26,609 nt of DNA from a virus (IMGVR_UViG_2648501334_000005); one strand, 5' to 3'; positions 1 through 26,609 are shown, numbered from the stretch's first letter. Notes: generated by a model not told the origin, from the letters alone. A program made the numbers and translations.

Positions 1-132
1 GGTGGAGGTGTCCAGCATCAGCGGGGTCATTGCAGGCGCTTTCGCACTCAATCCGCCGGGCGCGGTTGCGGTATGAGCCGGGTCACTGTTGCCCAGCGGC
101 TGGTAATGGGTAAAGGTTTCTTTGCTCGTCAT
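1..132 (-). CDS. D: Head decoration protein gpD, N-terminal 44 codons only (gene runs off the window start)
   Basis: Reverse complement of 1-132 translates [44 protein letters not shown], which matches the lambda gpD N-terminus as I recall it. ATG at 132..130, 11 nt after the C stop. Not in the ORF track because it is truncated by the window edge. Confidence 0.85.
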
Positions 133-141
133 AAACATCCC

Positions 142-747
142 TTACACTGGTGTGTTCAGCAAATCGTTAACGGCATCAGATGCCGGGTTACCTGCAGCCA
201 GCGGTGCCGGTGCCCCCTGCATCAGACGATCCAGCGCAGTGTCACTGCGCGCCTGTGCACTCTGTGGTGCTGCGGCCAGAATACGGCGGGCCGTTTCCAC
301 GGTCATACCGGGGGTTTCGGCCAGCACGCATGCCTGTTCTTCGCGTCCGTGAGCCTCCTCACAGCTGAGGATCCCCATAATGCGACTGTTTTCTGCCGCA
401 ACCGCTGCGGTGATCTGCGCGTTCACGTCCGGCTGCGCCGCGCTGGCGTTCTCGCCCTCCGTCGCTGGCACCACGCCAGTAACGTCAGCCTGCGAAGCAG
501 TGGCTGAAACAGTTGTTGATTGAGTCTCTTTGGTCATTCGCCCTCCTGAGAGACGGGATTTACGTGCATCCAGTGCATCACGCATGACGGTGATCGCATC
601 GGTGCTGTTAACAAGTTCATCAGCCAGTCCGGCATCAATGGCCTCCTGACCGCTGTACACTGCAGCCTCGGTATCCAGCACAGCCTGCACAGACAGGCCG
701 GTATATGCCGACACCTTCTGCGCAAACATCTGGCGGGTTGCATCCAT
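142..747 (-). CDS. Nu3: Scaffolding protein Nu3, nested in frame in the 3' part of C (201 aa)
   Basis: Internal in-frame ATG at 747..745 gives MDATRQMFAQKVSAYTGLSVQ...DLLNTPV, corresponding to lambda Nu3, which is known to be an in-frame internal start within C. Confidence 0.6.
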   Translation of the reverse strand: MDATRQMFAQKVSAYTGLSVQAVLDTEAAVYSGQEAIDAGLADELVNSTDAITVMRDALDARKSRLSGGRMTKETQSTTVSATASQADVTGVVPATEGENASAAQPDVNAQITAAVAAENSRIMGILSCEEAHGREEQACVLAETPGMTVETARRILAAAPQSAQARSDTALDRLMQGAPAPLAAGNPASDAVNDLLNTPV

Positions 748-1441
748 CCGGGACTGCAGTGTCTCCCGGACGTCATCCAGAAGATGGCTGTAGGGGTTGC
801 CATCCACCTTATGGCTGCCGCTGTAAATCAGCGTGATTTCCACACCCTGTTTCTCCAGCGCAGCACCGTAATTACTGTGAGCCATCATGACGCCGATGGA
901 GCCTGTCCGGGCGGTCTGCGTGACCAGACGCCGGGAGGCAGCACTGGCAAGCAGCTGACCTGCACTGCAGTTCATGTCGTTGGCCAGCGCCCATACCGGT
1001 TTTATGTCACGCACACGGGCGATGATGTCAGCGCAGTCAAATGCTCCCGCCACCATTCCGCCTGGCGTGTCCATATCGAGCAGAATGCCGTCCACCATCG
1101 GATCGCTGGCAGCCTGTTGCAGACGGGCGATAATGCCGTTGTAACCGGTCATCCCCGAATACGGCTGCAGCGCCCGCGTCCGGCTGACCAGCGTGCCGGA
1201 CACCGGCAGCACGGCGATGCCGTTCATGACCTGATAACTGCGGGCCTGTCGTGGTCCGTCATCATCACCGGATAACGCCAGCGTCGCGGGTGCCTCTCCG
1301 GCAGTCAGACTGTCGCCGGATACCGCATCCGTCAGGCGGCTGATCCCAAGCTGGCCTGCAAGCGCACAAAAGAAAACCCGCGCATAGGCGGGTTCAAGCA
1401 TCAGCGGCTCATTAAAGGCCATACTGGCAATATGCGGGAGA

Positions 1442-1461
<20 letters not shown>
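142..1461 (-). CDS. C: Prohead protease / head maturation protein C (S49 ClpP-like), 439 aa
   Basis: Track ORF 142..1575. Translation from VTAELRNLPHIASMAFNEPLMLEPAYARVFF... matches lambda gpC nearly residue for residue. Start placed at GTG 1461..1459 by homology, overlapping the B stop as in lambda; the upstream 38 codons of the track ORF are treated as read-through artefact. Confidence 0.9.
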
Positions 1462-5142
<3,681 letters not shown>

Positions 5143-5168
<26 letters not shown>

Positions 5169-5688
5169 TCAGCAACCCCGGTATCAGTTCATCCAGCGCG
5201 GCTGCTTTGTTCATGGCTTTGATGATATCCCGTTTCAGGAAATCAATATGCCGGTTATCCAGCTCAGGAAAACGTCGCTGCACCGACAGAGGAATACCGT
5301 CGAGAATACTGGATATTTCCCTTGCTATACGCGACAGCACGAAAGTACAGAATGCGGTTTCCACCACTTCAGCCGATTCTTTGGCATTTTTCAGTTCCTG
5401 CGCCGTCGCCTGAGCACGGGTCAGGCGATGGCGCTCAAATTCAAGTGTTCCGGGGTGAAGATCTGCCTCGCTGGCCAGCCGCAGTTCTTCAACCTCCCGG
5501 CGCAGCTTTTCGTTCTCAATTTCAGCATCCCTTTCGGCATACCATTTTATGACGGCGGCAGAATCATAAAGCACCTCATTACCCTTGCCACCGCCTCGCA
5601 GAACGGGCATTCCCTGCTCCTGCCAGTTCTGAATGGTACGGATACTCGCACCGAAAATATCAGCCAGCTGCTTTTTGTTGACTTCCAT
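5143..5688 (-). CDS. Nu1: Terminase small subunit Nu1, 181 aa
   Basis: Track ORF. MEVNKKQLADIFGASIRTIQNWQEQGMPVLRGGGKGNEVLYDSAAVIKWYAERD... matches lambda gpNu1 (winged-helix N-terminus). Confidence 0.95.
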
Positions 5689-7694: not shown

Positions 7695-7712
7695 GTGCGA
7701 CCACGGTCGCAC
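7695..7712. promoter_or_regulatory. sopC-like 18-bp palindrome GTGCGACCACGGTCGCAC, copy 1 (candidate SopB centromere site)
   Basis: Near-perfect inverted repeat with arms TGCGACC/GGTCGCA, differing in one arm position from the F sopC core TGGGACCACGGTCCCA as I recall it. Lies 24 bp upstream of the 286-aa gene start. Confidence 0.5.
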
Positions 7713-7914: not shown

Positions 7915-7932
7915 GTGCGACCACGGTCGCAC
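7915..7932. promoter_or_regulatory. sopC-like 18-bp palindrome GTGCGACCACGGTCGCAC, copy 2
   Basis: Identical to copy 1. Lies between repeat B and the DUF4406-like gene. Confidence 0.5.
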
Positions 7933-9603: not shown

Positions 9604-10680
9604 TTACTCAAATAACTTTTTCACTTCATCAACTGTCTGAAGATAACGTTCGCCCTCAATCTCAATACCTATTGCCTGACGCCCTAACTTCAGCGCAGCT
9701 TTAATAGTTGAGCCTGATCCCATAAAGAAATCGGCAACGATATCTCCGGGGCGTGAACTACTCTTTATAATATGTTCCATCATCGCTGCAGGTTTTTCAC
9801 ATGGGTGCTTGCCAGGATAATATTGCACAGGAGGAAACTCCCATACATCGGTATAAGGTACATCAGCAGTAACATGAAATGGACGGCGTAAATTTTCATA
9901 CTGAGCCTTCAAATCATCATACTGCTTCTTTACTTCCTCATAATGCAATTTCAGATCGCTATAACGCTTTTCATGTTCTGAATAATCAACATTAAAAGGA
10001 TATGGACACGGGACACCGAGTGAATCTGCCTTCCTGCGAAATAATTCGCATAGTTTATTAAAATCAATTAATGATGGAAGCCGCCACTGCGAATAAGAAA
10101 ACCAGTGTGAACACATCTGCTTTCCTGTCGCTGAATTAATGTCTGCGGCTGATATATCTAACTGACGGCGAGCCAGCGAAAAAGCATCAATTAGTGGAGA
10201 AAAAATATTTTTTCTTAAATCTGCACATTTTGAAGCATAACCTGACTGACCTTTAGCATAACCTGACGCGCCGTAATGCTCTGCAAATAATATTCTTTCA
10301 GTAGCAGGAAAATAAGCCCTTAAACTTTCTTTATGACAACCGCGCCACATACCACTGGGTTTAGCCCAAATGATATGGTTCAGAACATTGAAACGGTCGC
10401 GAGTTAATAATTCAATTTTTGACGCAAGGCGAGAGCCGGTAAACATATACAGGCTGCCATTAGGGGCCAATATCCGCCAAAATTCTGCCAAAAATTCGTC
10501 AATCCACCCCAAAAAGTCAGCATCGCTATCCCACTGGTTATCCCATGCGTTAGCCTTTACGCCGAAGTATGGTGGGTCTGTTGCAATCAAATTGACCGAG
10601 TTATCAGGGATGGTTTTGATAAATTGCAGAGAATCTGCGCAAACGAGTTGTGCGCCATGAATATTAGTGGTTTTGAACAT
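9604..10680 (-). CDS. DNA methyltransferase (N6-adenine or N4-cytosine, beta-class motif order), probable orphan MTase, 358 aa
   Basis: Track ORF 9604..10725 trimmed to ATG 10680..10678 (MFKTTNIHGAQLVCADSL...). DPPY motif (IATDPPYFG) near the N-terminus and an AdoMet-binding FxGxG motif (DFFMGSGST) near the C-terminus. No adjacent restriction enzyme gene. Confidence 0.85.
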   Translation of the reverse strand: MFKTTNIHGAQLVCADSLQFIKTIPDNSVNLIATDPPYFGVKANAWDNQWDSDADFLGWIDEFLAEFWRILAPNGSLYMFTGSRLASKIELLTRDRFNVLNHIIWAKPSGMWRGCHKESLRAYFPATERILFAEHYGASGYAKGQSGYASKCADLRKNIFSPLIDAFSLARRQLDISAADINSATGKQMCSHWFSYSQWRLPSLIDFNKLCELFRRKADSLGVPCPYPFNVDYSEHEKRYSDLKLHYEEVKKQYDDLKAQYENLRRPFHVTADVPYTDVWEFPPVQYYPGKHPCEKPAAMMEHIIKSSSRPGDIVADFFMGSGSTIKAALKLGRQAIGIEIEGERYLQTVDEVKKLFE

Positions 10681-10815
10681 AGCTATTATTTTTTTGCCTG
10701 GGTAAGCTAACCCGGCGATGCGCATCGCGGGTGGGCTTTAGGTTCAGCCTATAGCTCTGGCATGGGTTGACCGCAGGACAAGCTGCAACTTGTCCTGCGC
10801 CCACTTTTCAGGCAC

Positions 10816-10924: not shown

Positions 10925-10942
10925 GTGCGACCGTGGTCGCAC
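10925..10942. promoter_or_regulatory. sopC-like 18-bp palindrome GTGCGACCGTGGTCGCAC, copy 3
   Basis: Same arms as copies 1 and 2 with the centre inverted. Lies in the intergenic region between the 75-aa ORF and the tR'-like terminator. Confidence 0.5.
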
Positions 10943-12745: not shown

Positions 12746-12763
12746 TTATCCCTCCGTGACCAG

Positions 12764-13090
12764 TCACGCTTTGAGTGCAAGTTTCAGCCTCGTGGTTGTA
12801 AGGTGGCATGACCCTTCGCCATCAAAAATGCATTCTGAAACAGGCATTTTTTGACCACATCGCGGGCAAGTAGTAGATAGCTGCTTCTGCAGCTCCTTAT
12901 AGTTTTTCCTGATCAGCAAACCAATGACTTCGTTCTCCGAATATGGAACTCGCCCTGGTCTACGCAATACACAAATTTCCCCCAACATACGTAACTCGTC
13001 AGGTTCTAGAATCCAGTCCCGTCTTGATGTGCCTTCCTTCTTCAATCGTTCCCTGCGTCTCCTTTGCCGTTCTGCCGGTGTCAGCGCCAT
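12764..13090 (-). CDS. Hypothetical protein, 108 aa, arginine-rich N-terminus and a CPRCG zinc-ribbon-like motif
   Basis: Track ORF. No family recognised. Confidence 0.4.
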   Translation of the reverse strand: MALTPAERQRRRRERLKKEGTSRRDWILEPDELRMLGEICVLRRPGRVPYSENEVIGLLIRKNYKELQKQLSTTCPRCGQKMPVSECIFDGEGSCHLTTTRLKLALKA

Positions 13091-16192: not shown

Positions 16193-16493
16193 TTTCTTGT
16201 GCGACCACGGTCGCACCCTCTCTGATTTCCAAGTAACGCTTAATCCAAAGATTTTCTATATGCTTATTACCTGGCTGATTTGATAAATACCAATCGGCAA
16301 TTACAGACTGCTTATTACTATCTGGCCGTGTCCTGTAACCACAAGTTGGACACCAGATAACATATTCATTTCTTACCCCCGAATACCTTAATTCTGGCTT
16401 CGACGGTTTCCTGAACATAACTTGTTTACAAAGGCAGAATGGCACTTCCTGCCCGATGGCGTTTGATGATTTCACTGCGCTTCTCCGCCGCAT
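16173..16493 (-). CDS. Zinc-ribbon protein, possibly Lar-family restriction alleviation protein (start uncertain)
   Basis: Track ORF. YVIWCPTCGYRTRPDSNKQSVIADW resembles the Lar-family pattern of CxxC followed by an AIxAW motif. The 3' end encodes ATVVAQ across palindrome copy 4. Confidence 0.35.
   Translation of the reverse strand: MRRRSAVKSSNAIGQEVPFCLCKQVMFRKPSKPELRYSGVRNEYVIWCPTCGYRTRPDSNKQSVIADWYLSNQPGNKHIENLWIKRYLEIREGATVVAQENENNAI
16199..16216. promoter_or_regulatory. sopC-like 18-bp palindrome GTGCGACCACGGTCGCAC, copy 4
   Basis: Identical to copies 1 and 2. Lies in the 3' end of the Lar-like ORF, just upstream of the next gene start. Confidence 0.5.
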
Positions 16494-17136
16494 TTAATAA
16501 TGCAGTTCGATTTAAGCTCAGACATCGCGACTTAATTAAAAGCCAGCGTTCTTTATAATCTTGTCTCCAGCTATCAATAGATATATTCAGTAGAAAACTC
16601 AGATGCCTGTCCTGTTCTCTCTCATCAACTGCCTCAGCACACGTAAGTTCTGATTTAACCTGTTGTGCCGCGTAATAAATCAATTTCCGCATGGCTTTTT
16701 TCGTGGAGGCCTTCATTTTTTTAAAGCCCCCCCCCGAATGAGCAACCAGAAAATCAAGCCATAACCACTGACAAACAATCACATCATTGTTGTAATCAGG
16801 CTTGCATCCGTAGCAATAATAAAGCCAGGCTGATTCCTCGTTATTCAACTGACCAATAGCCCTGCGCCAGCTGGCGCTCTGAAAATCAATATCAGTGAGC
16901 AACATTGATGATTGTTTAAATGTTTTCCCCTGGTGGAATCTAACCGGCTCAGCAGGAACGGACACTTCGTATGAGTTATCATCCCCCACACTGATTGACC
17001 GGACTGGTTTATTGTTAAACCGTCCTGATCTACCGAGACGCATCTGCTCAAGCTGGACCTCCAGAATGCCACGCTGGCGATAATGAACATCGGCCAATGC
17101 CGTAGAGACGCAGCTGCGTATATACTCAAGCTCCAC
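16426..17136 (-). CDS. Putative late-gene antiterminator Q-like protein (assigned by position directly downstream of cro; family not confirmed), 236 aa
   Basis: Track ORF overlapping the cro-like stop. Cysteine cluster YYCYGCKP...C. In N15 the immB region is organised cB-cro-Q. Sequence is not lambda-Q-like. Confidence 0.35.
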   Translation of the reverse strand: MELEYIRSCVSTALADVHYRQRGILEVQLEQMRLGRSGRFNNKPVRSISVGDDNSYEVSVPAEPVRFHQGKTFKQSSMLLTDIDFQSASWRRAIGQLNNEESAWLYYCYGCKPDYNNDVIVCQWLWLDFLVAHSGGGFKKMKASTKKAMRKLIYYAAQQVKSELTCAEAVDEREQDRHLSFLLNISIDSWRQDYKERWLLIKSRCLSLNRTALLNAAEKRSEIIKRHRAGSAILPL

Positions 17137-17347
17137 GCTTACGACTCTCCTTAATCGACTGCTTTACCCGCCGAGTTGTAAAGTCACTCTTCAGCTTATA
17201 AGCAGTACGAACTTCAATATCGCTTTGCCGCAATGAAGGAATCTCTCCAGCGGTTAACCATTGGTAAACAGCTCCGGGTGTTACACCTACCCCTGCTGCT
17301 GCTTTTTCTACACTGCCAAAGTGGCGAATAAGTTCTTCTGGTTTCAT
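17126..17347 (-). CDS. cro: Cro-like HTH regulator (YdaS-type), 73 aa
   Basis: Track ORF 17126..17374 trimmed to ATG 17347..17345 (MKPEELIRHFGSVEKAAAGVGVTPGAVYQWLTAGEIP...). Divergent from the cB-like gene, with operators in between. Confidence 0.65.
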   Translation of the reverse strand: MKPEELIRHFGSVEKAAAGVGVTPGAVYQWLTAGEIPSLRQSDIEVRTAYKLKSDFTTRRVKQSIKESRKRGA

Positions 17348-17374
17348 GTTGTTATTATAAACAATAAACAACAA

Positions 17375-17438: not shown

Positions 17439-18035
17439 ATGAAAACACGAGGCGAACGACTGAAAGCACGCCGTTTAGAGATGAAGCTGACGTTGCGAGA
17501 AGTTGCTGAGGCTGTCGATATCTCTATAGCAGGCGTCCAAAACTTAGAACGTGGCGACGTAATGCCGTCACTGGAGATAGGTATTGCCCTGGCTAAGTGC
17601 TTACGCAAGCCAGTGCATTGGGTGCTATATGGGACAGAATATGACCCTGATCGCATTCCTGTTATTGGCACAACTGAAAGTGGGCCGGATGAAGAGTGGA
17701 AGCCGGGACAGGTTCCAAATACTGAGCGATTCCTGCCATTCATCAGCCAGCGCAATACTGTGTATGCGTTAACTATCAGCAATCTTACGCAGGGAAACTA
17801 TCAGCCAGGCGATTTTCTCCTGGTCGATTCTGCGCTGGAACTGGTCCCCGGCGAGGATGTTCTGGTTCGTGATACTGCAGGAAATATCACTATCCAGCGC
17901 CTGGCCCGTTTTGATGATGAAAATTACTATCTGGATGGAACAAACTCACAACGCGCCATCTTCAGGAAAAGCGATCTTGAATTTGTTCACCAAATAGTCG
18001 GAACGATCAAATCATTCATGGTTGAGGGTAGATGA
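17439..18035 (+). CDS. cB: Prophage repressor CB/CI-like (N-terminal HTH XRE domain, C-terminal S24 LexA-like domain), 198 aa
   Basis: Track ORF. N-terminal HTH LTLREVAEAVDISIAGVQNLERG. C-terminal domain with lambda-CI-like segments PGDFLLVD...GEDVLVRD. Divergent from cro. Confidence 0.8.
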   Translation: MKTRGERLKARRLEMKLTLREVAEAVDISIAGVQNLERGDVMPSLEIGIALAKCLRKPVHWVLYGTEYDPDRIPVIGTTESGPDEEWKPGQVPNTERFLPFISQRNTVYALTISNLTQGNYQPGDFLLVDSALELVPGEDVLVRDTAGNITIQRLARFDDENYYLDGTNSQRAIFRKSDLEFVHQIVGTIKSFMVEGR

Positions 18036-18124
18036 CTTAATACGGGGTTTATTGTTTGCTGTAAATCTGGTTTAATGCAGGGCATATGTTCTGTGGGTTG
18101 ACTCAGGTTACAGCAGCAGAAAAA

Positions 18125-18164
18125 AGACGAAAAAAAACCCGAGTCGGCAAACTCGGGTCCTTTT
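18125..18164. terminator. Bidirectional intrinsic terminator downstream of the cB-like gene
   Basis: CCCGAGTCGGCAAACTCGGG hairpin flanked by an A-run on the 5' side and TCCTTTTC on the 3' side. Confidence 0.5.
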
Positions 18165-18280
18165 CAGGAAGCAGCCACAGTAACGCGACGGATTCCGTCA
18201 ATTCAAGATGCGTTTATTGTGGCTGCTCCTGCGGATTTTTTCAACCCGAAAAAACATAATTCGCATGGAATGGCTAAAAA

Positions 18281-21200
18281 ATGACATTAAACGATTTCTA
18301 TGCGGATCGCTTTGGCAGCGATCCGTTCTCGCTAATTGAAGCAGCACGGGATGAACTAACCGAGCTGGCACAGATGGCTGGTATCAACTGGCCTGCCTGT
18401 TCCGACAACATCCAACTCAACCCTCGCGGGGGGGTTGAGCGTTACTCTTCATACAATAAAACATCTCCAGAAGCTCTCGAAAAGAGCCTGAAAGGACGCG
18501 TAGAAATTTACTCCAGGCTGGAACACAGCAAAGGGATTGATTACCCGTTCATTAACTTCGTCCATAAAGGCAGCGATGCTGGCTCATGGAGCGGTTTCTC
18601 CTTCCTGTTTTCTGAATATCGCCGTGAGCAACAACGGAATAATGCGACCGTGGTCGCACAACCGGAAGAAGAACGGGAAAGAATAGAACGTCAGGCCGAA
18701 GCACGTCGTCGCCGTGAAGAACAAAAACGAATTAATGACCTGAAAAACAACCAAATGGACCATGAACGTTTGCTGGGATGGCTGGCATTCCACAGCGCGT
18801 GGGAACATGCTCCGGCTGAAGACGGCTCATGGCCATATGCGATTAAAAAAGGTATTCGTGACGTTTTTAGTTCATGTGATGTGCGTCGCGTGACCAGTCA
18901 CGACAGTGCGAAATGGAGCCGGGGGCCAACCACATATATGGCTATCCCTCTGGCTCACCTGGACGGTCGTTATGATGGTCGTATTGTGGGTTGGCAGCGA
19001 ATCGACAAACAAGGTGGGAAATACCAGACCAGCGCAGTAACCAGCGGCGATTTCGTCGGTGCCTGCTTTGTTATCGGTGAGCTGAAAGGGGCGCAAAACA
19101 TCGCTGTTACAGAAGGTTTTGCTACTGGTGCATCCATCTGGCTTGCCACGAAAAAAGATAAACGCTTTGACGCTGTGGTTGTCGCTGTATCCGCTAACAA
19201 CATGGTTCATGTTGTGGAACAACTGGTAAACATGTACCCGGCGGCAAAAATCACCTGCGCACTGGATAATGACCGGAAATCTGCCACAGAAGGAAAAGGG
19301 AATACAGGCCTGCGGACTGGCTATGAAATCTTATCGAAATTCAACGATGTCCGCTGCGTCTATCCAACTTTTGAAGACGATCCGCAAATGGAGTGCAGTG
19401 ACTTCAACGACCTGCACAAACTACGTGGACTTCGTGAAACAGCACGTCAACTATTTGCAACAGCAAACCGCCTGAAAACCGGTACTGATTTGCTATCTCT
19501 GACGCTCAACCGCCTGAAGACAATTAAGCGGGATAACCGTCGTACTTTTGCCAAAGAGCTGCTGAGAGCGGTGGATATTGGCATGCTAACCTGTCCGGTT
19601 CCTAACAGTCCGTCAGATTTATTTAACATGTTCTGCATCGTTCTGCGTGAAATGGGACTGGAAAATATCTATCGCGCTACGGTAAAAGACCACATTGCCC
19701 GTCGCCTGAATAAAAAGTGCCGTATTGCCCAGGCTCCGCGCTCTTTCAGCGAACGCATAACTGATCCCAATAAACGCCCTCAACATATCACCTATAAGCG
19801 TTTTGAAACTTCGGTAATGACCGATGATGTCCTGAAGTACGTGCAATCACTACAGGGGATAGTCATCGTCCGTGCTGGTATGGGTTCCGGCAAATCTACT
19901 GGATTGTTACGACCGTTAATGCATAGCTCAGAACGTGGTATCTCTGTTGCTCACCGTGTCTCCCTTATTGGTGGCCTGTGGGAAATGATGACAGAAGGAA
20001 AAGGTGTAAAAGCCGATATCCTGCACTATCAGGATCCTGGCTATCAGGAAATGGCTCCATACGCCAGTAAACTGACCATCTGCATAAACTCGATTGTTAA
20101 AAACTGCTGGCAACCGTTGATGCGCCAGCACGACTATTTTGGCTTTGACGAGGCCACACAAGGGCTACGTGCCGTTCTTTCCGGTCGGGCTATGGAAAAC
20201 CCGGTGGCTGTATTCAATACGCTAATTGACGCGCTGGCCAGAACGGAACAACACCCAATCATGGTAGATGCTGATGCGAACGATCTGCTGGTTGACCTGG
20301 CTGAACTGGCTATGAAACGCCGTGAAGAACTAGGTTTACCGGCATGGCTGCAGATCCACGTAATTGAATTACCTGTTGATGTTCGCAACCGCGAAACAGG
20401 TGAGCCAATCCGGGTTTTTTATACAGAAAAAGATCGCATCATGACCGAGGTGGTGAAAGCTGTATCGGATGGCGAAAAAATCATGTTGGCCACCGACAGC
20501 TCCACCTTTGCAGAAGATGTGACAGCCACCCTGAGAATGCATTTTCCTGGTAAGAAATTTCTGTGTGTAAACCAGAAAAACAAACCAGAGCCAGAAGTTG
20601 AAGCATTTACCAATCAACCGAAAAAGATGGTCAAAAAATACGACGGCCTGATTTATAGCCCGTCTATTTCATCCGGCGTGTCGATTGAGCAAAAACATTT
20701 TGACCGTCATTTCGGCATGTTCTGTGGTGAAGTTGTACCCAGCGACGCAGTGCAAATGCTACGCCGCGACCGTACAGCAAAAGAATTTATTATCGGCTTT
20801 GATAAAGCTCGTGCAAAACGTGAAACTGACCCGCAAAAAATAGAACGAGCATTCGCCCAGGCATTGCTTGCTACCGCAGGTATGAACGGTGAACTGACGG
20901 ATGTCGTTTTCGATGGCGACCGTATATCAATGGGGGTGGCCAATACCGACTTTACCAGGATGAAAATTAAAGCAGCCGCAATTGAAGCGACTGCGCGTAA
21001 CGACTACGCCAGCAACATGATCTGCATCATGCACAGCGACGGTTATAAGGTATCGCCGCTGGCCACCGATTATGCTGCGAATGATATCGGTAAAGATCTG
21101 CGTAAAGAAGCGCGGGATATTGTGTGGGAACAGACACTGGATCTGCACCTCAATACAGAAACTCCACAAGAATCAGAGCGTGAAGAACTGCTAAAAAAAC

Positions 21201-22276
21201 GCGCGCTGACGCTTGAAGAACAGGCAAAACTTGTCCGCTGGGATATTGAAAACGAACTGAAACTACCGGTTGAAGAAGGCACGCTAAAATTCTATTTCGA
21301 TGGTGCTCGAGACAAAGTTCGCCGCTATGAAACAATGCTTTTAGATGAGGTAACAGCTCGTCGTTACGACCGGGAAGAAGCAGCCATCAATTTTACCTAC
21401 GCATACCGTCAGGCGGGACAGTGGCAATATTTTGTAGTGACCGCGATGACTCGCGAGCAGGCTGATGATGTCTTTAAAACTAAATTCCCTGGAATAATCG
21501 ATCACAAGGTAAAAGCTACTCCTACTGTTGAAGTCGGGGCGCGCGGTTTCTATGCGCTTAAATCAGCAACTCTCCGGCAGTACTTTATCGACTGCGGTAT
21601 CAACCCTGAGACTATGACCGGCGAGGCGACTCAGGAGCGTCTCAAATTCGCTCGAGATAACCTCATGACAGCCGAACGCCGTGACCTGTTGAATAACGTT
21701 CTGCACATTGGTGGTTTTATGACGCCAAAAGGGAAGCCTAAAGTGCCGGAAGCGTTGTTTAAAAACATTTGCGACTCTCTTGGCCTTAAAACAGGTAAAC
21801 GTCGCGGCAGAGACGGCGATAAGCGTCCAACCTTGCGTTTTGTTGAGCCTGAATCAGCGGCATTTATGCTGGATATTCTTGTTCAGCGTCAGAAAGATGG
21901 CCTAACACTAAAAACGCGTAAAGCCGAGAAGACAGCCATCGAAATGGATCGCGATTTGGATCTCAATATATATATGGATGATAAAACGCGATCCACAAAC
22001 GAGCAGGTTCAAAACGCCCCTCATTCAGTAATTTCTGAGGCTTTGGCCGTGTTGCCAGTGGCTGTACCTGAGTCCTGGGCGATGAGTGCGCTTTCCAGTG
22101 AGGAGTTGGCCACTATGTCATCATGGTCATCAGCCAGCATAGCTATGACGTTTGCATCCCTGTACCTCACAGAGTTCATGGATCACCTTTCCAGCAATGA
22201 GCTGCGGCGGTTACGTGAATACATTACGGGGAATAGCTCATGCAGCTACGAAGAGCAGGGTGCTTTCTATGGGTAA
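18281..22276 (+). CDS. repA: Replication protein RepA, multidomain primase (TOPRIM) - helicase, 1331 aa
   Basis: Track ORF. TOPRIM-like motifs NIAVTEGFATGASI and CALDNDRKS, Walker A GMGSGKST and Walker B-like FGFDEAT. Size and position next to cB match N15 RepA (about 1324 aa as I recall). Confidence 0.9.
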   Translation: MTLNDFYADRFGSDPFSLIEAARDELTELAQMAGINWPACSDNIQLNPRGGVERYSSYNKTSPEALEKSLKGRVEIYSRLEHSKGIDYPFINFVHKGSDAGSWSGFSFLFSEYRREQQRNNATVVAQPEEERERIERQAEARRRREEQKRINDLKNNQMDHERLLGWLAFHSAWEHAPAEDGSWPYAIKKGIRDVFSSCDVRRVTSHDSAKWSRGPTTYMAIPLAHLDGRYDGRIVGWQRIDKQGGKYQTSAVTSGDFVGACFVIGELKGAQNIAVTEGFATGASIWLATKKDKRFDAVVVAVSANNMVHVVEQLVNMYPAAKITCALDNDRKSATEGKGNTGLRTGYEILSKFNDVRCVYPTFEDDPQMECSDFNDLHKLRGLRETARQLFATANRLKTGTDLLSLTLNRLKTIKRDNRRTFAKELLRAVDIGMLTCPVPNSPSDLFNMFCIVLREMGLENIYRATVKDHIARRLNKKCRIAQAPRSFSERITDPNKRPQHITYKRFETSVMTDDVLKYVQSLQGIVIVRAGMGSGKSTGLLRPLMHSSERGISVAHRVSLIGGLWEMMTEGKGVKADILHYQDPGYQEMAPYASKLTICINSIVKNCWQPLMRQHDYFGFDEATQGLRAVLSGRAMENPVAVFNTLIDALARTEQHPIMVDADANDLLVDLAELAMKRREELGLPAWLQIHVIELPVDVRNRETGEPIRVFYTEKDRIMTEVVKAVSDGEKIMLATDSSTFAEDVTATLRMHFPGKKFLCVNQKNKPEPEVEAFTNQPKKMVKKYDGLIYSPSISSGVSIEQKHFDRHFGMFCGEVVPSDAVQMLRRDRTAKEFIIGFDKARAKRETDPQKIERAFAQALLATAGMNGELTDVVFDGDRISMGVANTDFTRMKIKAAAIEATARNDYASNMICIMHSDGYKVSPLATDYAANDIGKDLRKEARDIVWEQTLDLHLNTETPQESEREELLKKRALTLEEQAKLVRWDIENELKLPVEEGTLKFYFDGARDKVRRYETMLLDEVTARRYDREEAAINFTYAYRQAGQWQYFVVTAMTREQADDVFKTKFPGIIDHKVKATPTVEVGARGFYALKSATLRQYFIDCGINPETMTGEATQERLKFARDNLMTAERRDLLNNVLHIGGFMTPKGKPKVPEALFKNICDSLGLKTGKRRGRDGDKRPTLRFVEPESAAFMLDILVQRQKDGLTLKTRKAEKTAIEMDRDLDLNIYMDDKTRSTNEQVQNAPHSVISEALAVLPVAVPESWAMSALSSEELATMSSWSSASIAMTFASLYLTEFMDHLSSNELRRLREYITGNSSCSYEEQGAFYG
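18642..18659. promoter_or_regulatory. sopC-like palindrome ATGCGACCGTGGTCGCAC, copy 5 (17/18), inside repA coding sequence
   Basis: Same TGCGACC/GGTCGCA arms. Encodes ATVVAQ in RepA. Confidence 0.45.
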
Positions 22277-22460
22277 TGATTGGATATTATCTTTGTGTCT
22301 CTTGCTTTATGTGTTCCATCTATGGTTTTGGTTCATAGACCGAAAGTCTCACAAGGAAAACATGAAGGCCAGGAAGGCGATGTTTCGTGGTGAACAATTT
22401 GCGCAGACTTATCGTATGTGGAAACGTTTCTATCGTGAATTTTCGGTGAACGGGGAGTAA
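22269..22460 (+). CDS. Hypothetical small membrane protein, 63 aa (start uncertain)
   Basis: Track ORF 22152..22460 trimmed to the ATG overlapping the repA stop. One hydrophobic helix (ILSLCLLLYVFHLWFWFI) then a basic tail. Weak ribosome-binding site. Confidence 0.3.
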   Translation: MGNDWILSLCLLLYVFHLWFWFIDRKSHKENMKARKAMFRGEQFAQTYRMWKRFYREFSVNGE

Positions 22461-22464
22461 AAAT

Positions 22465-22791
22465 ATGTCTACTACTGCATTTTTGGACAAACTTGATTAC
22501 CGTCAGCTGCAGTTCTGCCGGGATGAATGCGAACGACGCATTAGGGCTATCCAGGAGGAAGAAAAAAAGGTCGCCTGGGCTGTAACAGATCGTGGCCTTA
22601 TCTTTGGCTGGTTCCGTACGGAGGATTATCTGAAAGCAGTGGAATTATTGGCGCGTAAGGCTGCTGAGCGTTGGGAACGAGCCGACAAGGAAAACCCGGA
22701 GACGAAGTATGAACTGAATCTCTACATCGAGGGCAACCGTCTACCATTGTCAGAGTATAACGCTTTGTTTGCTGATGGTGAGTGGGGTTAA
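22465..22791 (+). CDS. Hypothetical protein, 108 aa
   Basis: Track ORF with a GGGGAG Shine-Dalgarno 7 nt upstream. No family recognised. Confidence 0.45.
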   Translation: MSTTAFLDKLDYRQLQFCRDECERRIRAIQEEEKKVAWAVTDRGLIFGWFRTEDYLKAVELLARKAAERWERADKENPETKYELNLYIEGNRLPLSEYNALFADGEWG

Positions 22792-22793
22792 AA

Positions 22794-23189
22794 ATGGCTG
22801 TTCAATCATACAAATACGAATCCCCTTTGGATAAGGGATACATTCGTATCAAGTTAAGTCGTTCTCAGCATAAGGCTATTTTTAAGGTAAGGAAAATTCG
22901 CATATTGGATGCGTATGCGTATTACTACAACGGTGAAAATGTTGTTGTTGAACACTTTCTTGCACGATGGTTTGTAGCTCTGATTTTTGTCCCTCTCCTG
23001 TTAATTGGTACTTTTGTGGATGGTTTTCCTAGTACATGGCGGGAGATAAAGAAAGGCCTATTCCCGCATAAGTACGGCAGATTTTCGCAAGATAGCTGGC
23101 GAGTTATACCAGGTAAACATTCTGTAGATGAGCAACCGATTGTTGATTCCTGGTTGAATCGTATGGCTGATGCTAAAAAAGTTGATTGA
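22794..23189 (+). CDS. Hypothetical membrane protein, about 131 aa (track start 22782; first ATG after the upstream stop is 22794)
   Basis: Track ORF. Hydrophobic helix WFVALIFVPLLLIGTFV. No family recognised. Confidence 0.4.
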   Translation: MAVQSYKYESPLDKGYIRIKLSRSQHKAIFKVRKIRILDAYAYYYNGENVVVEHFLARWFVALIFVPLLLIGTFVDGFPSTWREIKKGLFPHKYGRFSQDSWRVIPGKHSVDEQPIVDSWLNRMADAKKVD

Positions 23190-23195
23190 ATTGTG

Positions 23196-23504
23196 ATGAC
23201 TGTTACAGGAGATAAAGTGAAGAGTTTTATTTTTGTTTTATGTTTTGCCTTTTCTGCTGCGGTTTATGCCCAGGAAGATAGCATTTCTGTTATTAACTCA
23301 TCAGCGGAGCTTGCATGTAAAAATAATCCCGATGCTGCATCAAAAGAGTCATGCAAAGAGCTGCTCCTTTCGACGGCTGCTTTTGCTTCTGAAAATGCAA
23401 AATTTTATTCAGCCTTTTGTCGCGGCTATGTTAAGGACGAAGATAAAGAAAAATGTGATGATGCCGGTAAGTTAGTTAGGTATTTCCAATCTCTTAATCA
23501 GTAA
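23196..23504 (+). CDS. Small secreted cysteine-containing protein with N-terminal signal peptide (start 23196 ATG, or GTG at 23217 after an AGGAG)
   Basis: Track ORF. Signal-peptide-like KSFIFVLCFAFSAAVYA followed by QEDS (AxA-type cleavage site). Mature part has 4 Cys. No family recognised. Confidence 0.5.
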   Translation: MTVTGDKVKSFIFVLCFAFSAAVYAQEDSISVINSSAELACKNNPDAASKESCKELLLSTAAFASENAKFYSAFCRGYVKDEDKEKCDDAGKLVRYFQSLNQ

Positions 23505-23644
23505 TGGCCTTTGATTAACGATCAACTTCTGATCACTCGTTCAAGCAAACTATAAAAACACCTGTCCCCGTGACTGGTCACGGGGTAAAATGTCTTTGCA
23601 AATTATTGACGTGCGCGTCGTTTTGACGGTAAAGTTTACTCCGC

Positions 23645-23717
23645 TACGGTAAATCCCGTAGCCGGGCGTAGGAACCCGAGTAAATGAAGCGCACAACACG
23701 CGCCAGCGTGTTTTTTT
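23645..23717 (+). ncRNA. Candidate c4-like antisense/regulatory small RNA of an immI-like anti-immunity locus
   Basis: Possible promoters with TTGACG -35 boxes at 23606-23611 and 23623-23628. Hairpin GCTACGG-TAAATC-CCGTAGC. Intrinsic terminator at 23696-23717 (ACACGC-GCCA-GCGTGT followed by T7). GTAGGAA motif (23668-23674) is complementary to TTCCTAC (23801-23807) in the icd leader. Boundaries are approximate. Confidence 0.3.
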
Positions 23718-23880
23718 GTGTGTAAAATCTGCGTACACCAAATTTATGGTGGCTCAGATGGGGCAGCTTTTAGCTGGCCGGTTTCTTCGTTTACCGGTAT
23801 TCCTACCCCCGTCTGGGCTACCGCCATATAGAGCGTAGGAACTCTGGTGGTAGCACGACCAATTAAACGGAGTGCATACC

Positions 23881-24481: not shown

Positions 24482-26383
24482 TTATCCGAAATATGTCAGC
24501 CATGCTAACTGCATTGCTGATATAGGGCTGTTTGCACTGCCGGACCAAGCATAATTCTGGCCATTATAATGAAACTCAACAACGTATGAGCCATCACCAA
24601 TATTTCTCACAGGCTTAAATACCGGCTTAGATACAGGTGAAGAAGGCGCGGGCGGTTGCTGTTCTTCTACGCTCTCTTCCTCTTCCTCTTCCTCTTCCTC
24701 TATCTCAATTTCGTCGTCATCCAGATCGTCATCCTCTGATAATTCATCCGTCTGTTCAGGTATTGCTTCCAGCTCTTCTTCGTCAGGCATAACGATTTCT
24801 GGAGAATCTATTTTCAGCTGCCATTGTCCATTTTCGCCAACAAATTGCCCCAGAGCATCAGCAGCAAATTCCAGGTATCGACTAATCATTGTAGGGCTAA
24901 ATTTGAATGCTCTTAGAGTGCTGTTCGTGATTTTTATAGAGGGGTCCTGCTCTACCAGCTGCTTAACTGTGTTATGCAGACGAACTCCGGCATCTCCTCT
25001 GGCGAATCCTGGCATTTCGTCATCAAGCTGCTGCAATGCTTCCAGCCTGGTATTTTCGTTTCCAGTATTTGGCCTCCATGTCTTTGAGAAGTTGGCCAGC
25101 TTGAATTGCTTATAGTGTAATTGAGTGTTTTCATCGTCATGGCCTAAAATTTCCATAAAGAAAACATCCTCATCTACGTTTTTCCAACGAGGATCTACGC
25201 GGAAAAACATTTCATACGCAATACGGGCATAAATAGCACGACTATCTTTATAAACACGGCGGTCATCTTTGAAAAATGATTTAACCCACGGGTTAAAAGC
25301 CTTTGCTAATATGGCATTAATCCGTCCGTTTTCAGAGCGTGTGTCGTTATCTCCATAACCTTTAACGACATCATCAAAATCAGATGCTGCTGGGCATGAG
25401 CGAAGTACATTTATTAAATAAACAAATGTTTTTGCTTCGCATAATGTATATATTTTTCTGGTTATATCATCAGAAGTTCTTTTTTTTGCTTGGCCTAAAA
25501 AATCAACGGTATACTTACCAGAAACAGTAAATGTACCTTGATACATAATCTCAATCATTCGTCTTCCAGACAATGCAGCAAGTGCAAATGCCAAAGGAGC
25601 CATACCTGAACGAGTGTTTAGATTATTTAATGTAGCAGGGCTATTTATAATATCGTAAATAGCTTGCATATATTTAGGGTAATCAATGACCACTACGTTA
25701 CGTTTCTTATTGTGCAGAACGTCTGCCCATCGTTGCTGGATAGATGCGCGTTCGGCAGGGCTTAGTTGAAGATGATAGAGAATCTCATGGTTAACTTTTA
25801 GCTGATTCAACTCCTCAAGTAAGGCAGATCCTTGCTGTAGTAATTTATATAAATAATCGCGCTTATCTTTCCAGTTATCGCTAGTTAAATCAGAAATGGC
25901 GAATTGCCACTCTTTATATTTATTTGATAATTTTAATAACTTATTATGACTTTTGTTATCACCAATTCTGATATTAGATAAATCTTCTGATAAAGGGAGA
26001 ATTAATTTTAATTTTGCCTGTAAAGCTGACATTCTCTGGCGAATATCGGCAGCAGGTAGAGAAAGCCATGATAATAGCTCCTCATTATATAAAGGATACT
26101 TTTCAGATAGGCGATGTATATTTTTTTCAAAGCTATGATGAAGTTTATCATCAAACCGTTTTCTGGCCCTGCTCATATAGGCATTGAATGTGTTGGCTGT
26201 AATTCTTTTTTCTAATCCTTTCCCCCTAAACTTTCGCTTGTCATTAAATAATGCATTTTTAAATTTTAATGCAACAGCTTTTATTTTTTTTGTTTTTTCC
26301 CCTTGAGGACGGTCAGAGTTATCTATTGACTCAACATCGCTAACAAGTGAGTTTATTAATTCACCGATTTTTACTTTGCTCAT
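24482..26383 (-). CDS. telN: Protelomerase (telomere resolvase) TelN, 633 aa
   Basis: Track ORF. MSKVKIGELINSLVSDVESIDNSDRPQGEKTKKIKAVALKFKNALFNDKRKFRGKGLEKRITANTFNAYMSRARKRFDDKLHH... tracks N15 TelN (about 631 aa) as I recall it, including the acidic C-terminal stretch. Strong AGGAGAGG ribosome-binding site. Confidence 0.92.
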   Translation of the reverse strand: MSKVKIGELINSLVSDVESIDNSDRPQGEKTKKIKAVALKFKNALFNDKRKFRGKGLEKRITANTFNAYMSRARKRFDDKLHHSFEKNIHRLSEKYPLYNEELLSWLSLPAADIRQRMSALQAKLKLILPLSEDLSNIRIGDNKSHNKLLKLSNKYKEWQFAISDLTSDNWKDKRDYLYKLLQQGSALLEELNQLKVNHEILYHLQLSPAERASIQQRWADVLHNKKRNVVVIDYPKYMQAIYDIINSPATLNNLNTRSGMAPLAFALAALSGRRMIEIMYQGTFTVSGKYTVDFLGQAKKRTSDDITRKIYTLCEAKTFVYLINVLRSCPAASDFDDVVKGYGDNDTRSENGRINAILAKAFNPWVKSFFKDDRRVYKDSRAIYARIAYEMFFRVDPRWKNVDEDVFFMEILGHDDENTQLHYKQFKLANFSKTWRPNTGNENTRLEALQQLDDEMPGFARGDAGVRLHNTVKQLVEQDPSIKITNSTLRAFKFSPTMISRYLEFAADALGQFVGENGQWQLKIDSPEIVMPDEEELEAIPEQTDELSEDDDLDDDEIEIEEEEEEEEESVEEQQPPAPSSPVSKPVFKPVRNIGDGSYVVEFHYNGQNYAWSGSANSPISAMQLAWLTYFG

Positions 26384-26539: not shown

Positions 26540-26609
26540 TTCTAAAGATCAGCACATAATCCCCCATTATACGCGCGTATAATGGGGGATTATGTGCTGA
26601 TCTTTAGAA
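26540..26609. other. telRL: Telomere resolution site (telRL / tos core): perfect 70-bp palindrome centred on ACGCGCGT
   Basis: 26540-26609 is a perfect inverted repeat, checked base by base, with centre between 26574 and 26575. Core CCATTATACGCGCGTATAATGG matches the N15 telO palindrome as I recall it. It reaches the final base of the window. Confidence 0.9.

Follow-up and report, generated by a model that had tools for sequence, protein, structure and literature searches.

In the N15 family of telomere phages, replication and part of the segregation machinery are known to meet in one large gene, since an initiator gene holding both its own origin and a centromere site has already been described for N15 and PY54. 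Indeed, N15 replication starts within repA, and a N15 centromere site lies within the same gene (PMC2847241), while the N15 and PY54 RepA proteins are classed as a DnaG-type primase fused to a superfamily 2 (SF2) replicative helicase, the helicase role having cited experimental support (PMC4889955). For replicons of the N15 type, repA alone is reported to be enough for circular plasmid replication (PMC10612081, which cites Ziegelin 2005 as well as Mardanov & Ravin 2006). At the locus level, 784 linear plasmid-like phages have been described with the convergent repA-telN pair as their hallmark, and among 274 distinct repA-telN loci, 271 (99%) had a cI-like repressor gene before repA (PMC10432266). 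Here we analyse the gene at positions 18281-22276 of a 26,609-nt viral stretch (IMGVR_UViG_2648501334_000005), hereafter the window, whose plus-strand numbering is used for all coordinates. Our results show that this open reading frame (ORF) encodes an N15-family RepA, the initiator of a telomere phage kept as a linear plasmid. We give a probability of about 80% to the whole reading, namely an N15-type RepA initiator gene with an embedded partition site and a putative origin core at 21940-22001. One gene acting as initiator, helicase and primase while carrying its own candidate origin and centromere site follows the known N15-family logic; what is new here is a candidate origin core of ~60 bp defined by family-wide comparison, the encoding of both embedded sites in predicted disordered protein linkers, and a conserved GATC signature, which raises a Dam/SeqA copy-control hypothesis. 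The comparison also reveals a further conserved palindrome family with a copy inside repA. Note that the repA module underlies the linear cloning vectors derived from N15 (pJAZZ) as well as chromosome engineering with TelN.

An earlier reading of the window from its sequence alone (the sequence-only reading) had proposed a 1331-aa plus-strand RepA, and this ORF was recovered intact, with an ATG start and no internal stop. The protein is collinear with N15 gp37 (1324 aa; 75% amino-acid identity over aa 1-1327) and, over the full length, with phiKO2 gp35 (1328 aa; 76%) and PY54 RepA (1330 aa; 49-50%), and it is 99.5% identical to the corresponding protein of Escherichia phage PhiR46_1. Using megablast, the repA DNA matched PhiR46_1 (98.3% identity, full length), YDC107_1 (94.8%) and phiKO2 (73.6% over nt 1-3437), while the similarity to N15 (77%) was confined to the first 1138 nt, the window repA thereby representing a lineage separate from N15. 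Full-length repA at 99% DNA identity or more is present in 15 plasmid records, and a survey of 5426 complete E. coli genomes found the gene in 17, each time on a plasmid record and in no case on a chromosome. The frameshift splitting the ORF that the sequence-only reading had considered is excluded because of the intact ORF, its end-to-end collinearity with N15 gp37, phiKO2 gp35 and PY54 RepA, and the 15 near-identical plasmid copies. PHROG 4913 (‘replication’) spans aa 1-1316, and deposited near-identical genes are labelled “primase”, “origin of replication binding family protein” or “CyRepA1 family”. Overall, all sequence-testable defining features of the N15-type RepA family are present. 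Length, domain order and full-length identity are shared with the N15, phiKO2 and PY54 proteins, the synteny is the same (cB → repA → cargo ← telN), and these genes agree in the codon at which a partition palindrome sits and in the 3′ location of an element made of 11-bp repeats and an AT-rich stretch. The window replicon differs from N15, phiKO2 and PY54 by its five palindrome copies and by a different RepA C-terminal tail.

Domain searches with hidden Markov models, combined with motif alignment and structure prediction, bear out the TOPRIM primase and the Walker A/B helicase core that the sequence-only reading had placed in one ORF. Pfam Toprim_3 matched aa 274-383 with an E-value of 1.6e-4, which is below the Pfam gathering cut-off, while two helicase-related models exceeded theirs, i.e., Herpes_ori_bp (PF02399) at aa 522-674 (25.2 bits versus a cut-off of 20, for profile positions 46-198 of 820 only) and NCBIfam CyRepA1 (NF042913) at aa 525-1034 (259.5 bits versus 200). 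The motifs were aligned among the window RepA, those of N15 and PY54, and those of two phages from other hosts, VP882 of Vibrio (31% identity) and phiHAP-1 of Halomonas (28% identity). The TOPRIM residues E278, D329-N-D331, D374, N376 and D377 remain invariant out to VP882 and phiHAP-1. In the helicase part, Walker A reads A532-x4-G537-K538-S539 (G535, G537 and K538 invariant among the deep relatives), Walker B reads D623-E624-A625-T626 (D623-E624-A625 invariant), and SF2 motif VI, Q825...R828-R829-D830-R831, is invariant. AlphaFold2 models of aa 1-520 and aa 481-1331, built on 28-sequence alignments, reached a mean predicted local distance difference test (pLDDT) score of 87.2 and 85.3, respectively. 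The N-terminal model resembles the primase domain of T7 gp4 (E-value 6e-6, template modelling (TM) score 0.65 on the target) and also matches the fold of the M. tuberculosis DnaG RNA-polymerase domain. For the C-terminal model, Foldseek returned the herpes simplex virus 1 (HSV-1) origin-binding protein UL9 on OriS (9hgi_B, also 9hgj) with an E-value of 1.7e-15 over 801 columns and a TM score of 0.42, the next-best SF2 helicase reaching 2e-8. A PDB sequence search with RepA gave a marginal UL9 match alone (E-value 0.22), so that fold comparison was needed to reveal this relationship. Motifs and models together show a predicted layout with a TOPRIM primase at ~aa 180-400, a UL9-like SF2 helicase at ~aa 525-1034 and a C-terminal region collinear with the origin-binding part of UL9, this post-helicase region being the best candidate for origin recognition.

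The helicase assignment refines the sequence-only reading, since motifs and predicted fold indicate that the RepA helicase is of the SF2, UL9-like type and not a DnaB-like or P4-like ring helicase. T7 gp4 and P4 alpha do resemble RepA in joining a TOPRIM primase and a replicative helicase on a single polypeptide, and the primase fold itself matches T7 gp4. However, the T7 gp4 helicase belongs to SF4 and that of P4 alpha to SF3, and RepA would also be an origin-recognising initiator; a ring-helicase assignment was rejected, as the helicase region matches SF2 families and folds only. UL9 shares the SF2 motif set of RepA and is collinear with it in fold, including the region after the core, but identity is ~15% and the TM score ~0.42, so the domain arrangement is different; moreover, UL9 has no primase domain and its origin does not lie within its own gene. 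The CyRepA1 plasmid replication proteins share the helicase region, and the Prokaryotic Genome Annotation Pipeline (PGAP) gives this name to identical proteins, but the model covers the helicase core alone, and RepA extends beyond it by a primase part of 520 aa on one side and by 300 aa at the C-terminus.

Regarding segregation, repA contains the fifth of five exact window copies of the palindrome TGCGACCGTGGTCGCA (at 7696, 7916, 10926, 16200 and 18643), for which 0.04 copies are expected and none of 100 shuffles reached five. The sequence-only reading had placed this copy within codons ~121-127 as an internal sopC-like site, and both the position (codons 121-126) and the likeness held. Indeed, the SopB site of the F plasmid is TGGGACCACGGTCCCA (PMC3597684), to which TGCGACCGTGGTCGCA is identical at 14 of 16 positions, the two differences being symmetric (positions 3 and 14). 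In addition, phiKO2 annotates a ‘putative plasmid partitioning site’ at the same repA position. Across 12 Enterobacterales-type repA genes, including that of the window, a 7-2-7 palindrome occurs at window codon 119-121 in all 12, and arm positions 3 and 14 covary symmetrically (G/C, C/G, A/T). As an example, N15-type arms are TGCGACC..GGTCGCA, F-type arms (TGGGACC..GGTCCCA) occur in PY54 and in a Salmonella and a Xenorhabdus relative, and the arms of an Orbus plasmid are TGAGACC..GGTCTCA. At the codon where the window has TGCGACCGTGGTCGCA, PY54 (L004, repA nt 369-384) and the Salmonella relative (L013) have exactly TGGGACCACGGTCCCA, and the Xenorhabdus relative (L012) combines F-type arms with a GC spacer. 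Since the arms change together and the encoded residues change along with them (ATVVA versus GTTVP), selection would act on the DNA and not on the peptide. These comparisons show a putative SopB/sopC-type partition palindrome at this place, i.e., a cis-acting DNA site within a reading frame, and the symmetric covariation probably marks SopB specificity groups. Like the sopC sites of the F plasmid, the window site is a 16-bp 7-2-7 inverted repeat, and PY54 and two other relatives even have exact F-type arms; however, F sopC consists of 12 tandem 43-bp repeats, whereas the window copies are dispersed singly with one inside a gene, and the symmetric change at positions 3 and 14 is expected to alter SopB specificity. 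The complete PhiR46_1 genome also contains exactly five copies, all on the replication arm. Outside repA, the copies at 7696-7711 and 7916-7931 are 220 bp apart, that at 10926-10941 lies just past the methylase gene, and that at 16200-16215 lies between Q and an exonuclease-like gene and matches a phiKO2-annotated site.

The sequence-only reading also held that the origin is probably inside the gene, noting that in N15 it lies in the 3′ part, and for this replicon four signals coincide at 21940-22001 in support of a 3′ location. This segment has three 11-bp repeats around a spacer of 72-74% AT, with the core motif TATATATA, the dyad arms TGGATCGCGATTT and AAAACGCGATCCA, and three GATC sites (21947, 21959 and 21990). 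In an early N15 record (U63085.1), these three 11-bp repeats are already annotated, some 260-320 nt ahead of the true stop codon. Synonymous variation, computed from a codon alignment of repA genes with significance by column permutation (n = 5000), has its minimum among the 1331 codons at codons 1227-1246, where it falls to 0.11 versus 0.47 gene-wide in four enterobacterial lineages and to 0.19 versus 0.52 when PY54 is added. At the same codons, amino-acid difference is 0.44-0.54, which places them among the least conserved of RepA. The observed minimum was reached by 13-19 of 5000 permutations for 20-codon windows and by none of 5000 for 30-codon windows. Duplex stability within repA is lowest at 21947-21986, whether computed over 20, 30 or 40 bp. 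Moreover, 21947/21959/21990 is the tightest GATC triple of the 26.6-kb window, and the tightest triple of the other Enterobacterales-type repA genes (11 of 11) lies at the same codons, 1222-1227. The architecture remains constant across eight lineages spanning 42-99% protein identity and 32-56% GC, with inverted arms of 8-19 nt that each contain a GATC and a spacer of 64-92% AT with a TATA(T/G)ATA-type core, whose length is 25-33 nt in seven lineages and 11 nt in P52. Outside the GATC, the arms vary by lineage yet stay complementary, with 3 G:T pairs in ~93 positions. In VP882, the least stable 30-mer occupies the equivalent position. We therefore infer a replication origin core at 21940-22001, in which GATC-bearing dyad arms would frame an AT-rich unwinding stretch.

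Comparable layouts are found in other systems. The repC genes of repABC plasmids likewise have their origin inside the initiator coding sequence, at or near an A+T-rich stretch, with a cis-acting initiator (PMC3155836); however, repC encodes an unrelated protein family without primase or helicase activity, while RepA has both domains. In E. coli oriC and P1 oriR, which are Dam/SeqA-controlled, GATC sites cluster both in the AT-rich unwinding region and next to it, as they do in the window; this is an analogy only, and the window repA has no DnaA box. A DnaA-dependent iteron origin was rejected on these grounds: no DnaA box (TTWTNCACA) was found in repA, there are three local repeats only, and dispersed matches are at chance level. 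No internal sigma-70 promoter was detected in 21700-22600, and tandem or direct repeats elsewhere in repA form short two-copy families only, at chance level.

Several observations nevertheless weigh against this origin assignment or against the partition site. No comparable element is seen in phiHAP-1, and the repA of PY54 has less stable DNA elsewhere than at its version of the element. The iteron search over the window (CGAWWTGGATC, at most two mismatches) gave 19 matches versus 26.9 expected, i.e., no further copies above chance beyond the local ones. At the GATC density of the window, ~0.3 triples within 44 bp are expected per window by our estimate, so that such a cluster is not rare alone and it is its conservation that counts. 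The GC-skew check proposed with the sequence-only reading was carried out and proved uninformative on a small replicon: the cumulative minimum lies at ~17.0-17.5 kb, at a switch in gene orientation, and the curve shows no inflection at the candidate origin near the end of repA. The PY54 origin is reportedly 212 bp long and located in the 3′ portion of repA, whose end would be dispensable for action in trans, and the N15 origin is likewise said to lie in the 3′ part of the gene; for N15, PMC2847241 gives the less specific ‘within repA’. As for partition, sopA and sopB genes are absent from the window, ParA and ParB being annotated at the opposite end of the near-identical PhiR46_1 genome. Finally, the core is prone to stable folding, as RNA (81-nt segment, -22.4 kcal/mol, z = -3.3; none of 200 shuffles folded equally well) but also in the form of single-stranded DNA (z = -2.7).

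This folding is what lends weight to the idea that the dyad acts as RNA, i.e., as an mRNA hairpin for stability, processing or downstream translation, with the origin elsewhere in repA or its leader; pairing is kept as the arms covary among lineages, and a downstream ORF begins at 22269, overlapping the end of repA. We consider this improbable, because the GATC is invariant in both arms of all lineages while the rest of the arms varies, which argues for sequence recognition beyond pairing, because G:T pairs are as scarce as given above, and because the central loop is the least stable duplex with a TATA(T/G)ATA-type core that a hairpin loop would not need; in addition, the report that N15 replication begins within repA (PMC2847241) speaks for the DNA. 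The element might instead serve control, either through RepA binding or in a Dam-dependent way (autoregulation, handcuffing, sequestration), with initiation at another AT-rich repA stretch, since repeats and GATC sites also fit copy-control sites and repA has further low-stability stretches, e.g., around 20415, 20778 and 21464-21503. The odds of this are slightly poorer again, as these other stretches show neither synonymous-site nor positional conservation among relatives, and as repeats joined with the stability minimum of the gene make up a classical origin layout. An origin core is thus favoured over both an mRNA hairpin and copy control, given that the GATC does not vary, that the symmetry is strictly Watson-Crick and that duplex stability is at its lowest.

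A comparable doubt could be raised for the repA palindrome, which might be a passive or relic copy, partition then proceeding via the four copies outside repA only. That four more exact copies exist in the window and that the N15 repA copy itself has one outer-base mismatch would be in line with such a relic. However, the conservation at the same codon in all 12 Enterobacterales-type genes, with arms that covary while the residues change along, together with the report that repA-retaining pJAZZ vectors are stabilised by sopAB via the centromere site in repA (PMC2847241), makes this very unlikely, and an active partition site in repA is the reading we keep.

Structure prediction suggests how both sites may coexist with the protein. 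Only two internal RepA segments have a pLDDT below 50, aa 122-127 and aa 1217-1245: the former is the sole such loop of the N-terminal model and corresponds to the partition-palindrome codons, while the latter is the sole such internal segment of the C-terminal model and includes all the codons of the candidate origin. Both embedded sites would thus sit in predicted disordered linkers, which would let the DNA be constrained without harm to the protein. The comparison therefore shows one way for cis-acting DNA sites to coexist with a coding sequence, i.e., placement in disordered linkers, a point of modest conceptual value. As a GATC occurs per arm in every lineage, with spacings of ~12 and ~31 bp, SeqA sequestration or methylation-dependent RepA binding could set the low copy number; the conserved signature suggests, speculatively, Dam/SeqA involvement. 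The window also encodes a phage DNA methylase at 9604-10725 on the minus strand (N6_N4_Mtase family, E-value 1e-46), for which the PhiR46_1 annotation reads ‘DNA adenine methylase’.

On the basis of what has been published on N15 and PY54, and of the anatomy of the window, the following mechanism may be proposed. Transcription of repA would start from a CB-repressed promoter just downstream of cB and thereby set the copy number. RepA would then bind the dyad repeats that lie towards the 3′ end of repA itself, melt the AT-rich spacer, unwind the DNA with its own helicase and prime with its own primase, and host DNA polymerase III would copy the DNA bidirectionally. A passage of PMC3155836 (citing Mardanov & Ravin 2006) states that N15 RepA acts only in cis. 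Finally, TelN, whose gene is convergent downstream, would resolve the replicated hairpin telomeres, and SopB, encoded on the other replicon arm, would segregate the plasmid by binding all five palindromes, the one in repA included.

A second palindrome family was also found. Three exact copies of CGTGAC-NN-GTCACG occur in the window (12755-12768, 18889-18902 and 23569-23582) versus 0.02 expected, and the repA copy (CGTGACCAGTCACG) falls in the second-lowest synonymous-variation region of the gene (codons 198-213). N15 has three copies at equivalent places, the first in repA itself, another upstream of its anti-immunity operon and the third following gene 46. In the window, one copy is the centre of an inverted repeat with 21-nt arms ~70 nt upstream of the anti-immunity RNAs. 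The repA copy lies in a modelled part of the protein (pLDDT 73-80), and the Xenorhabdus and Orbus relatives have at that position a sopC-type palindrome instead (a second copy, at window codon 207). A LexA box was ruled out on inspection, as there is no CTG-N10-CAG, and neither an annotation nor a known binding factor was found for the family, which also occurs at the anti-immunity promoter region and might tie replication to the lysis-lysogeny circuitry through a regulator. Taken jointly, the propositions that the embedded origin is a Dam-methylation-sensing dyad, that telomere-phage repA genes systematically put cis sites in disordered linkers, and that the CGTGAC-NN-GTCACG family links replication to lysis-lysogeny circuitry remain tentative, and we would sooner expect this combination to fail than to hold.

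Table 1. Coordinates of repA, its domains and embedded sites, and the neighbouring features of the window
Feature	Position	Strand	Basis
repA coding sequence	18281..22276	+	ORF list, translation; ATG start, 1331 aa, 0 internal stops
repA product: predicted primase and origin-binding SF2 helicase initiator of a linear plasmid-prophage	18281..22276	+	homology to N15 gp37
sopC-type partition (putative SopB-binding) palindrome TGCGACCGTGGTCGCA, TGCGACC-GT-GGTCGCA, codons 121-126	18643..18658	.	five exact window copies
Second palindrome CGTGAC-CA-GTCACG (CGTGACCAGTCACG), codons 203-208	18889..18902	.	three-copy dispersed family
TOPRIM core, DnaG-type primase domain (aa 274-383)	19100..19429	+	Toprim_3, invariant columns, AlphaFold2 fold match
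SF2 helicase core (aa 525-1034)	19853..21382	+	NF042913, Herpes_ori_bp, invariant columns, fold
Extended block of suppressed synonymous change, codons ~1221-1253	21935..22039	.	lowest 30-codon windows 1221-1250 and 1227-1253
Candidate origin core, codons 1220-1241	21940..22001	.	repeats, synonymous conservation, duplex stability, GATC cluster
Direct repeat CGAAATGGATC	21940-21950	.	candidate origin core
Direct repeat CGATTTGGATC	21952-21962	.	candidate origin core
27-nt spacer, 74% AT	21963-21989	.	candidate origin core
Inverted copy GATCCACAAACG	21990-22001	.	candidate origin core
Q	16426-17136	-	found in window ORF domain scan
cro	17126-17374	-	found in window ORF domain scan
cB/cI-type prophage repressor gene	17439..18035	+	Pfam HTH_3 and Peptidase_S24; upstream of and co-directional with repA
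OL-operator/promoter-like block, directly after cB	18049..18088, approximate	+	aligns with CB operator, N15 protein_bind 34056-34094
GC-rich hairpin with A/T-run flanks, bidirectional terminator-like, between cB and repA	18130..18165	.	terminator scan
Second long leader hairpin (14-nt arms, 30-nt loop), then T run	18170..18227	+	inverted repeat, conserved in N15
Protelomerase gene telN	24482..26383	-	Pfam TelK_N, TelK_muzzle, ResT-TelK_cat, TelK_stirrup; convergent with repA

The surroundings of repA (Table 1) confirm that the window corresponds to the replication arm of a linear, N15-like plasmid-prophage. The co-directional cB-like repressor announced by the sequence-only reading is present, and its view that a single gene stands in place of the lambda O/P genes also agrees with our data: no O/P, DnaB or DnaC-type domain was found in the 20 other window ORFs scanned with Pfam, and no O/P-like replication gene is annotated in the complete 46-kb relative PhiR46_1. 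A lambda O/P-type module, with an O-like initiator and a P-like loader, was rejected accordingly. The cB-repA synteny is common to N15, phiKO2, PY54 and five metagenomic or genomic relatives, and the order Q ← cro ← / → repressor → repA → variable cargo ← telN recurs in five more distant relatives. In the leader, the operator/promoter-like block and both hairpins are conserved with N15, and PMC4488713 reports copy-number control by CB through its binding to two OL sites that overlap the promoter of repA. The hairpin nearer to cB is an annotated putative rho-independent terminator in N15 and phiKO2, and the following one, between the operator/promoter block and the repA start, may be an attenuator.

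The slot between repA and telN (22269-23504) contains small window ORFs without Pfam match, the first of which overlaps the last 8 nt of repA, and its cargo varies among relatives. As an example, the Xenorhabdus relative has a ParD/ParE toxin-antitoxin pair (L012, 5578-6100), the Orbus relative a PAAR/DUF4225 toxin gene (L014, 5583-6918), and PhiR46_1 an annotated ‘Spackle’ exclusion protein. Also between repA and telN, Rfam identified isrK at 23643-23716 (+, 62.5 bits) and C4 antisense RNA at 23742-23828 (+, 73.6 bits), a region that corresponds to the immA-type anti-immunity locus described for N15 and P1. Next to telN, the window ends with a perfect 70-nt palindrome (26540-26609; 35-nt arms, centre 26574/26575), the telomere (tel) site. 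Since the PhiR46_1 record starts at window coordinate 26585, either the window sequence continues round the tip of the hairpin or its telRL-type site is intact. At the left end (1-5500), lambda-like head/terminase genes have 52-60% GC versus 35-49% over 5500-26609, and this sharp composition shift near 5500 points to a mosaic origin of the two window parts.

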